Of a DNA stretch of 64,000 bases, positions 15,052 to 41,287 are shown piece after piece. The stretch's first letter is position 1; each line of letters begins with the position of its first letter. Origin of the DNA: Candidatus Fervidifonticultor secundus (GTDB lineage: Bacteria > Sysuimicrobiota > Sysuimicrobiia > Sysuimicrobiales > Humicultoraceae); the NCBI GenBank assembly GCA_031459385.1, contig JAVKIP010000001.1:128001-192000 (forward strand), read 5' to 3'. The position numbers were made by a program, and so were the translations under genes. A model generated the notes under the pieces. That model had not been told where the DNA came from. It did no database searches and worked only from the letters and a program-made list of their open reading frames with translations.

Positions 15052-15891
15052 TTACTTCTCGATCGGCACGTTCACCAGGCTGCCGTACTCGGTCCACGAG
15101 CCGTCGTAGTTGCGCACGCGGGGATAGCCCAGCAGCTCCCGCAACACGAACCATGTGTGCGACGAGCGCTCGCCGATGCGGCAGTAGGCGATGACCTCTT
15201 TGTCGGGTGTGATGCCCTGACTCTCGTAGAGCGCGCGCAGCTCCTCGGGCGCCTTGAAGGTCCCGTCTTCGCGGAGCGCCATGCCCCAGGGGACGTTCTT
15301 CGCACCGGGGATGTGCCCGCCGCGCTGGGCGCCTTCCTGCGGCAGGTTCTCGGGCGCCAGCAGTTCGCCTGCGTATTCCTTCGGCGAGCGCACGTCCACC
15401 AGGCCGTGCCCTGGCTGGCCGACGCGCTGGAGCACGTAGTCGCGCAGGGCCCGGATCTCGGTGTCGGGCACTGCGGCGCGGTACCGGGTGCGCGGGTAGG
15501 CCGGCACCTCCCGCACGAGCGGCCGACCTTCGTCGCTCCACTTCTTGCGCCCGCCGTTCATGATCCGCACGTCGCCGTGCCCGTAGTACCGAAAGATCCA
15601 GTAGGCCCACGCAGCGAACCAGTTGTTGTTGTCGCCGTAGAAGACCACGGTGTGGTCGTTGCCCACCCCGGCCTCGCCCAACAGGGTCTCGAACTGAGCC
15701 TGCGACGGCAAATCGCGCCGCAGGGGGTCGGCCAGGTCGACTTTCCAGTCCAGGTTGAGCGCGCCGGGGATGTGCCCCTGCGCGTAGACCTCGCGGTCCA
15801 CCGAGACCTCGACGATGCGCAGGCCCGGATCGCGCAGGTGCTCGGCGACCCACCCGGTCTCCACCAGCACATCAGGCTTGGCGTATCCCAT
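15052..15891 (-). CDS. Tandem-domain rhodanese / thiosulfate sulfurtransferase
   Basis: GHIPGA twice, active-site [17 protein letters not shown] signature. Confidence 0.93.
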
Positions 15892-16215: not shown

Positions 16216-17229
16216 CTATGCCGTCACGGGAGATGCGATGACCCCGAGCCGCCTCTCGAGGAAGTCCGCAAACACGGCGTAGGGATCGAAGCCCACGACC
16301 CGACGGGCGTCGGTCACGAAATTGGACAGCACGTTGATGTCGTAGTAGTACCGGCGACCGTCGCGCTGGCTCACCAGGTACTCGATCCCGCCAACATCCA
16401 GCCGGGCCGCCGCGGCGATCTGCTGCACCTCGTCGAGCACCTGCGCCGGCGGCCGGTAGCCCTCGACGCGCAGGTTGGTCTTCGGCAGGTCTACCGGGCA
16501 GAGGTCCACCGCCGACTTGGCGGTCTGTGGCGGTGCCGCCGGCGCCCCCGTCCCGTCGGTCTGGCAGATGTCGGCCGGGCAGAGGTTGAACCCCGCCCCG
16601 GGATCCGGGAAGACCTTGATGGCGTACAGGAACCGGCCGTCGAGCACCTCGACCCGCACGATGTGCCCGTCCGCCGGCGCATGGTACTCCTGCACGAGGG
16701 CCACTCGGTCGATGCCCAGGTCGAGTGTCCCCGCCCGCGCAGCGGCGTCCAGGTCCTCCCAGCGGTCGAAGCGGCGGATCCCGGCGCCGCTTCCGCCGAT
16801 GTTGGGCTTCACCAGCACGGGGACGGCGAGTTCGCGGGCGGCGGCAGCGGCCTGTCGGGCGGTATTCACCACCCGGGTGCGGGGATGCGGCAGGCCCAGC
16901 CGCGCCAGCAAGGCCACCTGCGCGGCCTTGGAGAGTTCCAGGGCGAACGCCGCCGCCCCGTTCACCACCGGGACTCCCACGGACTCCAGCCACTGCAGGT
17001 AGGCGAGGGACGCGAAGATCGCGTGGCCGTGGCCCCGCACGTAGGCCGAGGGGCTCATGCGGTTGACGACGAGGTCGTAGGGCGCCCGCCGGTCGGCCGG
17101 GTCGAACGCCAGGTCTGCGGCGTGAATCCGCGCATACGGCACGCCCCGGCGGTCGAGCTCCGCGAAGAGCGGCACGAACCATTCGGGGTGTTCGTAGAGA
17201 ATGCCCAGTCGCGGCCAGGTGGTGCTCAT
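16216..17229 (-). CDS. ATP-grasp ligase (RimK/glutathione synthetase-like)
   Basis: VLVKPNIGGSGAGI, LVQEY, GIEYL, YDIN..SNF ATP-grasp motifs; FNLCPADIC segment. Confidence 0.85.
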   Translation of the reverse strand: MSTTWPRLGILYEHPEWFVPLFAELDRRGVPYARIHAADLAFDPADRRAPYDLVVNRMSPSAYVRGHGHAIFASLAYLQWLESVGVPVVNGAAAFALELSKAAQVALLARLGLPHPRTRVVNTARQAAAAARELAVPVLVKPNIGGSGAGIRRFDRWEDLDAAARAGTLDLGIDRVALVQEYHAPADGHIVRVEVLDGRFLYAIKVFPDPGAGFNLCPADICQTDGTGAPAAPPQTAKSAVDLCPVDLPKTNLRVEGYRPPAQVLDEVQQIAAAARLDVGGIEYLVSQRDGRRYYYDINVLSNFVTDARRVVGFDPYAVFADFLERRLGVIASPVTA

Positions 17230-17322
17230 CGCTGTCCTCCCTCATCGGCGGGCGCCCGGCGGCCGGTAAGGCCAGGTGCGCCCGCAGCGCACGTCGTGCT
17301 CGAGGTGTGTGGTGACTTCGGT

Positions 17323-17424
17323 CTACGCCGGGTGAGCAGGCGAAGGCCTGGGAGCCTTCGCCCGAGGACAGATGCAGTCCCGAGGGAGGGGGAGGTGTCG
17401 TGCGTCCTGCCACGTCGCTCGCAT
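17323..17424 (-). CDS. Putative Cys-containing leader peptide, copy 1 (MRATWQDARHLPLPRDCICPRAKAPRPSPAHPA)
   Basis: ATG 11 nt after a good -10 box; PRDCICP matches PRECICP in the second leader at 18661; 9-bp hairpin at 17339-17362. Confidence 0.6.
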   Translation of the reverse strand: MRATWQDARHLPLPRDCICPRAKAPRPSPAHPA

Positions 17425-17435
17425 GTTTGCTGCTG

Positions 17436-17464
17436 ATCCTAGCACACCGGCTGCCTCCGCGCAA
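17436..17464 (-). promoter_or_regulatory. Sigma70-type promoter driving the leader peptide / ATP-grasp operon
   Basis: TTGCGC-N17-TAGGAT with extended TG on the minus strand. Confidence 0.65.
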
Positions 17465-17556
17465 TCCACGCGCGGAGTGCGGAGTATAGAAGGGAGTCCA
17501 TCTCCCGTCTCCGTCACATCCGAGGGAACGGCACAGGCAGGCGCGAACCCTGGGGC

Positions 17557-18576
17557 GTGGACCGACGGTGGCTGCGCCTCGCGGCGTGGGGGGCCGGAAT
17601 CCTCGTCGTCTGGTGGGGCCTCGGGCAGTTGCGGGTGCTCACCGGCACGGCGGTGGTGGTCCTCATCATCACCTTCCCGATCTACCCGCTGGTGGACTGG
17701 CTGGAGCGCCGGGGCCTGGGACGCGCCGCAGCGGCTGCCCTGGTGCTGCTGGCAGTGCTGGCCGGGCTGGCCCTCGGCCTGGCCGTGATCATCCCCTGGA
17801 TCGTCGATCAGGTGCACGTGCTGATCCGCATCGCGCCGTCCGGGATCCGGGCGGTTACCGACCTGCTGGCGCGCTGGCAGATGCAGGTCGCTGAGCCGAC
17901 CTTCCCCGCGTTGCTGCGGACGGCCTGGGAGCGCGCCGGCGAGACCGCGGTCAGCGCGGCCAACGGCCTGGCGTCGCGTCTGGTGAACACCGTGGTGGGC
18001 TGGCTGGGCCAGCTCTACCTGGTGCTGCTGCTGCCCTTCATCATCTACTTCGTCCTGCTCGACTACCGGCGGGTGCGCGACGCCGGGCTGCGGCTGCTGC
18101 CGGCGGACGCGCGTCCGCGGGTCGAGGGGCTGCTCGAGACGCTGACGCGCACCCTGCGCTGGGGGCTGTGGGCGCAGGTCGTGGTGAGCGCTGTCGTGGG
18201 CGGGCTGACAGCCGTGGGGCTCGCGCTGGCCGGCGTGCCGGGCCCGCTCGCCATCGGACTGTTCGCCGGGGTGGCCGAGGCGGTCCCCTACATCGGCGGG
18301 TTCGCCACGTACGCCGTGGCCCTGCTGGCGGCGATCCCGCAGGGCGGCGCTGCCTGGATGTGGGCCGTGGTGGTGGTCACCGCGGTGAAGCTGCTCTCCA
18401 ACGTGCTGGTGCCCCTCGTGCTGGGGAAGTTCACGCAGACCCACCCGCTGGCCATCATCGCGGCGCTCCTGGCCCTGGGGCAGCTCTTCGGCCTGGTGGG
18501 CATGTTCTTCGCCGTGCCGGTGGTGGTCATCATCCGGGAGGTGCTGGCGTGGTGGCAGGCCGCGCGGGCGACCTGA
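17557..18576 (+). CDS. AI-2E (UPF0118/PerM) family transporter
   Basis: YPLVDWLER, YFVLLDY, VPYIG, HPLAII.AL..G..LFG.VGM..AVP motifs. Confidence 0.88.
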   Translation: MDRRWLRLAAWGAGILVVWWGLGQLRVLTGTAVVVLIITFPIYPLVDWLERRGLGRAAAAALVLLAVLAGLALGLAVIIPWIVDQVHVLIRIAPSGIRAVTDLLARWQMQVAEPTFPALLRTAWERAGETAVSAANGLASRLVNTVVGWLGQLYLVLLLPFIIYFVLLDYRRVRDAGLRLLPADARPRVEGLLETLTRTLRWGLWAQVVVSAVVGGLTAVGLALAGVPGPLAIGLFAGVAEAVPYIGGFATYAVALLAAIPQGGAAWMWAVVVVTAVKLLSNVLVPLVLGKFTQTHPLAIIAALLALGQLFGLVGMFFAVPVVVIIREVLAWWQAARAT

Positions 18577-18660: not shown

Positions 18661-18738
18661 ATGAGCAGGGCGAGAGCCAGCCGCTGGAACGCCGCGAGTC
18701 GTCCGCGCGAGTGCATCTGTCCGTCGCGAAGGCGATAG
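18661..18738 (+). CDS. Putative Cys-containing leader peptide, copy 2 (MSRARASRWNAASRPRECICPSRRR)
   Basis: ATG with GAGG SD; PRECICP motif; 9-bp hairpin 18725-18746 containing the stop; TTGCGG-N17-TAGGTA promoter-like sequence at 18593-18621. Confidence 0.6.
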   Translation: MSRARASRWNAASRPRECICPSRRR

Positions 18739-18864
18739 CCTTCGCGTTCCCCGCGTAGTCCAGTCATCTGCTGCTTTACTGCCGGGTCGGGGTGCCCGGA
18801 GGTGTGCACCGGTTCCGGGCGTGTCCGGCCCCTGGTGCCGAGAGGACGCCGGAGGTGGCGTGCG

Positions 18865-41211: not shown

Positions 41212-41287
41212 GGGCCCTTAGCTCAGCAGGCAGAGCGGCGGGCTTTTAACCCGCGCGTCGGGGGTTCGAGTCCCTCAGGGCCCACCA
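41212..41287 (+). tRNA. tRNA-Lys (anticodon TTT)
   Basis: 76 nt cloverleaf: acceptor GGGCCCT/AGGGCCC, D arm GCTC/GAGC, anticodon arm GCGGG-CTTTTAA-CCCGC, T loop TTCGAGT, encoded CCA. Confidence 0.97.

Follow-up and report, generated by a model that had tools for sequence, protein, structure and literature searches.

The ATP-grasp locus and its leader

The window studied here, a stretch of 64,000 nucleotides (nt) from Candidatus Fervidifonticultor secundus (contig JAVKIP010000001.1, positions 128,001 to 192,000), carries on its minus strand a gene coding for a RimK/LysX-like ATP-grasp enzyme, followed by a small open reading frame (ORF) and a rhodanese gene in what is likely an operon (Table 1). 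The ATP-grasp gene is preceded by a leader with a mini-ORF containing Cys-Ile-Cys-Pro codons, a hairpin directly 3' of these, and two segments complementary to the Shine-Dalgarno (SD) sequence and start codon of the enzyme gene. This complementarity is real and, taken alone, unremarkable; judging from comparison with related sequences, the leader is probably a conserved cysteine-sensing attenuator.

Table 1. Features of the ATP-grasp leader, its operon and further copies of the leader module. Positions are those of the window unless a contig is named; MFE, minimum free energy; aa, amino acids.
Feature	Position	Strand	Details
-35-like hexamer TTGCGC	17464-17459	minus	17-nt spacer to -10
Extended -10 box TGCTAGGAT	17436..17444	minus	TG 17444-17443, TAGGAT 17441-17436
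Leader mini-ORF MRATWQDARHLPLPRDCICPRAKAPRPSPAHPA	17323..17424	minus	33 codons + TAG; ATG 17424-17422, TAG 17325-17323
C-rich anti-SD tract CCUCCCUC, Leu-Pro-Leu-Pro codons	17382..17389	minus	dominant SD partner in the window's fold (MFE, centroid, helix probability)
Cys-Ile-Cys-Pro codons UGC AUC UGU CCU C	17364..17376	minus	conserved; putative sensor and anti-SD/anti-AUG segment
First Cys codon	17376-17374	minus	
Conserved hairpin GGGCGAAGGCU/GGCCUUCGCCU	17338..17363	minus	directly 3' of the Cys codons
SD region and start codon of the ATP-grasp gene, GAGGGAGGACAGCGAUG	17227..17243	minus	ATG 17229-17227
ATP-grasp gene, RimK/LysX-like, 337 aa	16216..17229	minus	Pfam LysX_preATP_grasp, RimK
Conserved ORF between ATP-grasp and rhodanese genes, 72 aa	15971..16189	minus	strong SD
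Two-domain rhodanese (sulfurtransferase)	15052..15891	minus	last gene of likely operon; Pfam Rhodanese, E 3.6e-38
AI-2E-family transporter gene	17557-18576	plus	divergent from the ATP-grasp leader; Pfam
Module copy 2	18661..18746	plus	mini-ORF MSRARASRWNAASRPRECICPSRRR, stop 18736-18738, hairpin 18725-18746
Module copy YAPRKCICP, first Cys TGT	contig C4 ~2486 (L124)	minus	before DUF4395 gene
Module copy APRQCICT	contig C11 ~49478 (L123)	plus	
tRNA gene	41212-41284	plus	sole Rfam match at gathering score in the window

The leader ATG lies 11 nt 3' of the -10 hexamer TAGGAT, as the initial annotation had read it, and the leader is near-leaderless by sequence. The same arrangement recurs among 52 unique instances of a module composed of Pro-Arg-x-Cys-Ile-Cys codons and a following hairpin: an extended -10 of the form TGnTAnnnT is present upstream of 37, and among these 37 a TTG stands at 16-19 nt spacing in 30 and the first in-frame start falls 7-13 nt after the extended -10 in 29. 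By eye, TAnnnT is absent between 17323 and 17230.

Concerning termination, terminator-like hairpins with a U run were found at 0 sites in 17150-17650, where the sequence is without a U run, and the leader thus lacks the intrinsic terminator that a classical attenuator carries between leader ORF and structural gene. No known riboswitch or other cis-regulatory family was matched either, since Rfam 15 at gathering score returned only a tRNA in the whole window, and the best sub-threshold matches of a permissive scan of 16900-17800 (at most 19 bits, E at least 0.29) are at chance level.

Conservation in orthologous leaders

We identified orthologous loci through the ATP-grasp protein in related genomes and named records, and extracted the region upstream wherever the flank sufficed; 28 unique leaders remained once 12 duplicates had been discarded. 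Among named records, the closest bear the label Armatimonadota or Candidatus Fervidifonticultor; in the NCBI taxonomy Ca. Fervidifonticultor stands within the phylum Candidatus Sysuimicrobiota, and relatives are named Ca. Sysuimicrobiota or CSP1-3. All 28 leaders contain TG[CT]-ATC-TGT at 77-162 nt before the ATP-grasp start, in every case in frame with an upstream start codon and with no intervening stop, a count that escapes circularity because the search that led to these loci used the protein, not the motif. Cys-Ile-Cys is therefore encoded in 28 of 28 orthologous leaders, and the two Cys codons are never adjacent.

The choice of codons within this segment is also constrained. All 28 orthologues use UGU for the second Cys, although this codon is rare in the genome, where it makes up 11.5% of the Cys codons in 1100 long ORFs; the preferred codons here are UGC for Cys and AUC for Ile, the latter accounting for 93.8% of Ile codons. 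A possible reason for the constancy of the Ile codon is that C-AU provides an anti-start codon, and for that of UGU, its pairing with ACA; a wobble-decoded Cys codon may in addition sharpen the sensor.

Several features of the 52 module instances suggest that the frame is read, leaving aside the Ile and second Cys codons, which formed part of the search pattern and are not counted as evidence. Start codons (ATG or GTG) located 3-16 nt after the -10 in 37 instances are distributed over frames 0, 1 and 2 relative to the Cys codons as 35:1:1, and as 25:0:0 when ATG alone is considered, while the start-to-Cys distance, always a multiple of 3, takes nine different values between 33 and 60 nt. Pro is found at position -3 from the first Cys in 52 of 52 instances (CCG 27, CCC 13, CCT 11, CCA 1) and Arg at position -2 in 50 of 52 (CGC 19, CGG 18, CGA 10, CGT 3), and in 72 further unique instances from metagenome contigs Arg is spelled AGG four times. 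Free third positions together with this switch of Arg codon family point to selection on the peptide or on its decoding, and not on an RNA motif alone.

A conserved helix predicted to mask the SD, and its adjacent hairpin

The two complementarities that the initial annotation had described are both present exactly as claimed. On the minus strand, CATCTGTCCTC (17374-17364), from the Cys codons, can form 11 pairs in total with GAGGACAGCGATG (17239-17227), made up of eight perfect pairs CUGUCCUC:GAGGACAG, a 2-nt CG bulge and CAU:AUG, and CCTCCCTC (17389-17382) is the perfect complement of GAGGGAGG (17243-17236). The 219-nt leader, which is rich in Pro codons and belongs to a genome of 71.5% G+C, has an MFE of -98.4 kcal/mol (z = -2.4). 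In both the MFE structure and the centroid of the window the SD is paired with CCUCCCUC and not with the Cys codons, and the CCUCCCUC:GAGGGAGG helix has a probability of 0.98 in the window ensemble, as obtained by forcing each helix in turn.

That the pairing goes beyond chance follows from its conservation in relatives and not from the window. For alignment we used a long class of 13 leaders, in which the motif lies 133-159 nt before the start. An unguided RNAalifold run on these predicted a helix between columns 29-37 (AUCUGUCCY) and columns 190-198 (the SD and following bases), and the adjacent hairpin as well. In the specified Cys-codon:SD helix, 86.7% of cells are paired, and the whole structure is 91.2% paired, as opposed to 47-52% after displacement of the 3' partners by 1-3 columns. 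A single pair of the helix is compensatory (CG in 8 leaders, UA in 4, UG in 1, none broken). Its U-A state is shared by the window's genus and one genome from a different genus, the other members of which have C-G. Moreover, the bases ACAG(A) that follow the SD are kept in 12 of the 13 leaders, and the conservation of this spacer is informative because only complementarity to UCUGU explains it.

Partition-function folds gave a similar picture. Of the 17 leaders whose motif lies at least 130 nt upstream, 13 have the SD paired with the Cys segment; the window and one other have it paired with the upstream C-rich tract instead. By consensus, then, the Cys-codon tract pairs with the SD, whereas in the window the C-rich tract is preferred. 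When the duplex formed by the Cys segment with the true initiation region was compared with those formed with control segments stepped through the ATP-grasp coding region, the initiation region ranked in the best 1% in 13 of 28 leaders and in the best 5% in 14. In leaders of the short class the complement often falls on the first codons (AUGAGGACA) and not on the SD.

The hairpin that follows the Cys codons comprises 12 pairs in the window MFE structure, 96% of its cells are paired across the 13 orthologues, and it is present after the Cys codons in every copy of the module, with changes from G-C to G-U and from A-U to G-U. An RNAalifold run on a mixed alignment of 29 modules returned no structure, MAFFT having shifted the hairpin arms of two classes by one column. 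In 42 of the 52 module instances the first paired base lies 12-14 nt after the first Cys nucleotide, a spacing such that a ribosome with the first Cys codon in its A site would end just before the hairpin. The hairpin may therefore act as an insulator or as a brake at the leading edge of a stalled ribosome.

Modelled effect of a stalled ribosome

We modelled the ribosome as a 28-nt footprint (-12 to +15 around the P site) kept unpaired, and calculated the cost of opening the SD and start region (-15 to +12). Without a ribosome this cost is 12.9 kcal/mol in the window. Placing the first Cys codon in the A site brings it down to 6.6 kcal/mol, and with the A site at the second Cys codon or at the stop codon it is 10.7 or 12.0 kcal/mol, respectively. 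The corresponding means for 17 long leaders (no ribosome, first Cys, second Cys, stop) are 15.9, 10.9, 11.1 and 13.4 kcal/mol. Moving the A site codon by codon places the minimum at the Asp/Cys codons in the window, and the cost also drops at the Asp/Cys codons in the four other leaders scanned, although in two of these four it stays as low or slightly lower until the ribosome is past the hairpin. For paralogous copies of the module the automatic start-codon calls are often wrong, and the footprint model is uninformative.

This modelling fits a release of the SD by a ribosome at the Cys codons, and does not prove it. The initial annotation had proposed that such a ribosome masks the anti-SD and switches on translation of the ATP-grasp gene under cysteine shortage; conservation, the consensus helix, the modelled energies and the sulfur-related genes described below all agree with this, but the main anti-SD of the window would be the C-rich tract and not the Cys codons named there. 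The C-rich tract and the Cys codons both lie under one stalled ribosome.

A module reused across the phylum

The module is present in four copies in the genome, two of which lie in the window (Table 1). The leader of the ATP-grasp gene is not a one-off, being one copy of a phylum-wide module. The exact motif of copy 2 (18712-18722, plus strand) is located upstream of genes for an NMT1/SsuA-like binding protein, an ABC ATPase and a permease (Pfam NMT1, ABC_tran and BPD_transp_1) extending to ~21652, with ATG 18865 as the most likely target start. No extended -10 is found near the ATG of copy 2, a GAGG lies 7 nt upstream of it, and by sequence this copy may be SD-led rather than leaderless. The APRQCICT copy lies ~200 nt before a 189-aa ORF of unassigned function and lower third-position G+C, which is followed by the gene of a pterin-binding enzyme. 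BLAST of the leader DNA against its own genome returned only the leader itself, and the paralogous copies surfaced via the short motif only. A peptide-level search of the short frames of the genome for R-x-C-[ILVMF]-C gave 23 matches, three of which are module copies. Two further matches that were inspected (C18 and C59) lie inside coding regions and were rejected.

A nucleotide pattern for the module (TGCATCTGT, 2-9 nt, GCGRRGG, 3-16 nt, CCTYCGC) was matched 105 times, in 64 of 94 genomes from the phylum, against 0 times for the reversed pattern, and the module was found in 44 of 61 genomes of a sample of relatives. Both genome counts and the number of matches are lower bounds, as copies with TGT as their first Cys codon escape the pattern. 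An in-frame mini-ORF is present in 33 of 33 instances examined, in which Cys-Ile-Cys itself was required by the search pattern. Downstream ORFs were called in 29 cases and scanned in 20, and these code for DUF4395 proteins (8), rhodaneses (7), sulfite reductases (2), pyridoxal phosphate (PLP) enzymes of Cys/Met metabolism (2) and an LplA/B-type ligase (1). The genes controlled by the module would therefore belong to cysteine and sulfur metabolism, with a rhodanese here and sulfur genes and an SsuA-like transporter elsewhere, and this assimilation gene set is our main reason for proposing that the switch would be ON when cysteine is short.

Complementarity to the target is also detectable outside the ATP-grasp loci. 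The segments GCAUCUGU and ACAGAUGC are complementary. In 13 of 52 instances an 8-mer fully complementary to the instance's own Cys segment lies 60-400 nt downstream, against 0-2 in three controls, and 7 of 68 metagenome instances have such an 8-mer, against 0 in the control. Several of these complements contain the AUG of the target (CAGAUGCA, GGACAGAUGCA).

The SD GGCGGAGGU in leaders of DUF4395 genes (L135, L140, L141, L142, L154) duplicates the hairpin's 5' arm. These leaders fold into several states, and further downstream they carry another CCUUCGCC-like arm. In the footprint model their SD becomes 3-6 kcal/mol cheaper to open with a ribosome at the first Cys codon and, in four of the five, costlier with one at the second. 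According to these folds, the DUF4395 leaders look like multi-segment switches in which the 3' arm of the hairpin could alternate between partners. Our examples include loci from two genomes flagged as unpublished (G010 and G019), and no conclusion rests on either of them alone.

Proposed mechanism and alternatives

On the evidence above we consider it likely that the locus is a cysteine-responsive translational attenuator. The extended -10 (17444-17436) would drive an mRNA beginning a few bases before the leader AUG. When Cys-tRNA is plentiful, ribosomes would run through the leader and leave, and the ribosome-free leader RNA would pair with the SD and start of the ATP-grasp gene (17243-17227) so that initiation is blocked; the partner in this pairing would be mainly CCUCCCUC (17389-17382) in the window, and the Cys-Ile-Cys-Pro codons in most relatives. 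When Cys-tRNA is scarce, a ribosome would wait with the first Cys codon (17376-17374) in its A site, covering both anti-SD tracts and ending just before the hairpin (17363-17338), and the SD thus freed would allow translation of the operon made up of the ATP-grasp gene, the small ORF and the rhodanese gene.

A number of observations weigh against this attenuator. In the window alone, neither complementarity exceeds what chance would give: of 1000 dinucleotide shuffles of the leader, 559 yield a leader:SD duplex at least as stable as the best native one (-19.9 kcal/mol), and the window's SD/start region ranks only at 5.9% of control segments. The fold check called for in the initial annotation bore out the pairing of 17382-17389, which is in the MFE structure, but not the Cys-codon helix, since CUGUCCUC:GAGGACAG has a probability of 0.0014 and lies 4.8 kcal/mol above the MFE in the window, a figure that refers to the 8-bp core without the three CAU:AUG pairs beyond the bulge. 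Compensatory changes in orthologous leaders, also named there as a check, do exist within a conserved helix, but covariation is confined to a single pair with about two independent changes among related genomes, and is thin. In 14 of 28 leaders, namely short leaders and one family, the duplex of the Cys segment with the translation initiation region is indistinct from control segments. Most paralogous copies have no simple complement (13 of 52 and 7 of 68 have one), so that many must couple to their targets in another way. Under the ribosome footprint the SD unpaired probability increases only from 0.30 to 0.38 on average in 28 leaders, and from 0.40 to 0.46 in the window, because other C-rich stretches replace the masked ones in an equilibrium model; as it changed so little, the opening energy was used as the measure instead. 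Finally, a strict sigma-70 scan called no promoter at the locus on either strand, a silence that for the same reason says nothing about a second promoter.

Among the alternatives, a main output through premature transcription termination, by Rho polarity or a non-canonical terminator under the control of leader translation and with SD masking as a secondary effect, appears unlikely. Rho has been proposed for the terminator-less Cys leaders of actinobacteria (Seliverstov et al., 2005, PMC1262725), and a C-rich, G-poor stretch, CACCACACACC, does follow the leader stop, with CCACAACAC in the three closest relatives. However, this stretch is not conserved beyond the closest relatives, and a ribosome stalled at Cys would stand ~40 nt upstream of it and would not shield it; 17150-17650 has no terminator-like hairpin with a U run, and the conserved long-range helix involves the SD itself.

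It is also quite unlikely that Pro-Arg-x-Cys-Ile-Cys is an arrest peptide whose nascent chain helps to hold the ribosome, possibly in response to a sulfur metabolite. Such a peptide would account for the retention of Pro and Arg through synonymous codons including AGG, neither residue being needed for plain Cys sensing, for the invariance of Cys-Ile-Cys in 28 of 28 orthologues, and for a hairpin at a fixed 12-14 nt from the first Cys codon. The invariance of UGC-AUC-UGU, on the other hand, is partly an RNA-level matter, several targets carrying ACAGAUGC around their SD or AUG, and the ATP-grasp leaders of other phyla share Cys richness only. We know of no arrest motif of the Pro-Arg-x-Cys-Ile-Cys form, which also counts against this explanation.

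We regard as very unlikely a structured RNA, either a riboswitch or a protein-binding leader, that masks the SD without translation and in which the reading frame is incidental. The strong nucleotide conservation of UGCAUCUGUCC and the hairpin, and the conserved SD-sequestering helix, are what such an RNA would show, but start codons fall into the three frames as 35:1:1, Pro and Arg vary in the manner of codons, the start-to-motif distance changes by whole codons only, and no Rfam family matches at gathering score or, below it, above chance level. That the mini-ORF encodes a functional small peptide, such as a substrate or ribosomal-peptide precursor of the ATP-grasp enzyme, is hardly credible, for although a small Cys-containing ORF does adjoin an ATP-grasp ligase with a weak NCBIfam match to an ATP-grasp peptide maturase, the match to this model (TIGR04187) is 22 bits against a cut-off of 350 and the pair does not qualify as graspetide-type, the module also precedes genes for rhodanese, DUF4395, sulfite reductase, PLP enzymes and a transporter, and the hairpin determines the peptide sequence beyond CICP, which varies in where it stops.

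Beyond the cysteine-responsive attenuator as set out above, one may consider that Pro-Arg-x-Cys-Ile-Cys and the hairpin form a portable arrest cassette, in which nascent chain and RNA roadblock jointly set the stall; we hold this to be rather unlikely. Were it true, the cassette could possibly read a sulfur metabolite besides Cys-tRNA, it would have spread through the phylum by recruiting genes whose starts evolved the complement ACAGAUGC, and instead of simply sensing hungry codons the system would constitute a modular translational regulon assisted by the peptide.

The operon, its neighbours and ATP-grasp loci in other phyla

The start of the ATP-grasp gene is well defined, M1 being invariant across an alignment of 13 orthologues. 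Every match of the protein in NCBIfam is below the curated cut-off for a named enzyme, and PDB sequences gave weak matches only. The 72-aa ORF is kept downstream of the ATP-grasp gene in relatives and has no Pfam family. Its product contains an HYHHI motif and ends with Asp/Glu-Gly where the C-terminus of relatives is visible, and in two relatives (L143, L144) the ORF lies directly after the Cys module and is followed by the rhodanese gene. As a guess only, this protein might be a small carrier-like partner of the RimK/LysX-type ligase. The rhodanese matches the NCBIfam 3-mercaptopyruvate sulfurtransferase at 134 bits, with a cut-off of 250. Concerning the divergent gene on the other side of the leader, a Thermomicrobia record (L111) has a gene for an AI-2E-family transporter directly after its ATP-grasp orthologue, and a functional link between this transporter and the ATP-grasp gene is possible.

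Upstream of 59 ATP-grasp loci from other phyla we found 30 Cys-rich mini-ORFs in the sense direction and 5 in the antisense control. In Acidobacteriota, Gemmatimonadota and Chloroflexota, different Cys-rich mini-ORFs stand before the orthologues, such as ...GCCPCACCSSPSG... and ...MCRCCWMRSRTTGRAG... (example loci L059, L062, L068, L074, L083, L100, L106 and others). Among four loci from outside the Sysuimicrobiota that contain a CIC-like nonamer, a Cys mini-ORF is present in two (Anaerolineae, Acidobacteriota) and not in the other two. Downstream of ATP-grasp genes, 7 of the 13 ORFs scanned (13 of 62 called; 9 of the 13 from other phyla) code for a luciferase-like monooxygenase. In many ATP-grasp loci of other phyla, stop and start codons overlap with this monooxygenase gene. 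On sequence grounds, the Cys-rich mini-ORFs suggest that Cys-linked control of the ATP-grasp enzyme is widespread, and that the function of this enzyme would be worth finding.

Relation to known systems and significance

The closest parallel is found in Mycobacterium smegmatis, where the SD of Ms5788, a gene in an operon with the cysA2 sulfurtransferase gene, is paired with the preceding mini-ORF, which is leaderless and has eight Cys codons in a row, and where stalling at the Cys tract relieves attenuation (Canestrari et al., 2020, bioRxiv 10.1101/834739). Both translation of the mini-ORF and its Cys codons are needed for the response to cysteine, and six loci behave alike (10.1101/834739). 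The Sysuimicrobiota leader resembles these Ms5788A/Rv0815A attenuators in having a mini-ORF with Cys codons complementary to the next SD, which by its sequence is predicted to be near-leaderless and first in the transcript, in the proposed relief by a ribosome waiting for Cys-tRNA, and in its parallel sulfur and cysteine loci including a rhodanese-type sulfurtransferase, for which the term 'ribulon' is used. It differs in that its two Cys codons are split by an invariant Ile instead of being consecutive, and are flanked by conserved Pro-Arg-x and Pro; a hairpin at fixed distance follows the Cys codons, whereas the mycobacterial RNA forms one long duplex; and a single sequence module recurs at all loci, where the mycobacterial leaders evolved independently. 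The host is moreover an uncultured phylum and not a member of the Actinomycetota, and the element is known here from sequence, there by experiment.

As in trpL and hisL, a short ORF with regulatory codons would be translated to choose between RNA structures, but those leaders use an intrinsic terminator with a U run, whereas here the alternating structure involves the ribosome-binding site. A terminator-type Cys uORF is also known from Rhodobacterales, the uORFC-8-2 motif of cysS (Brewer et al., 2021, PMC8632094). In the proposed freeing of a sequestered SD through a stalled leader ribosome the element is like the translation attenuation of ermC and cat, where the stall comes from an antibiotic and the nascent peptide and not from a shortage of aminoacyl-tRNA, as summarized by Canestrari et al. 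(2020). Cys leaders without terminators have been predicted in Actinobacteria (Seliverstov et al., 2005, PMC1262725); these candidates are likewise short Cys-codon ORFs upstream of cys and cbs operons, but they belong to another phylum, their Cys runs lie near the stop, and the available part of that article gives no pairing model for them. Our literature search returned no paper describing this module or Cys leaders in Sysuimicrobiota. The element probably works like the mycobacterial ones, and what would be new is the reuse of one conserved module across an uncultured phylum.

If this is true, ribosome-mediated cysteine sensing of the 'ribulon' type, so far shown only in mycobacteria, would extend to a deeply separate phylum, in which sulfur assimilation appears to be coordinated by one module, with no transcription factor dedicated to it. 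The Pro-Arg-x-Cys-Ile-Cys codons and their hairpin would then offer a simple signature for predicting sulfur-starvation genes in the genomes of unculturable bacteria, and would mark as cysteine-linked two proteins of unassigned function, the widespread RimK/LysX-like ATP-grasp enzyme and DUF4395.

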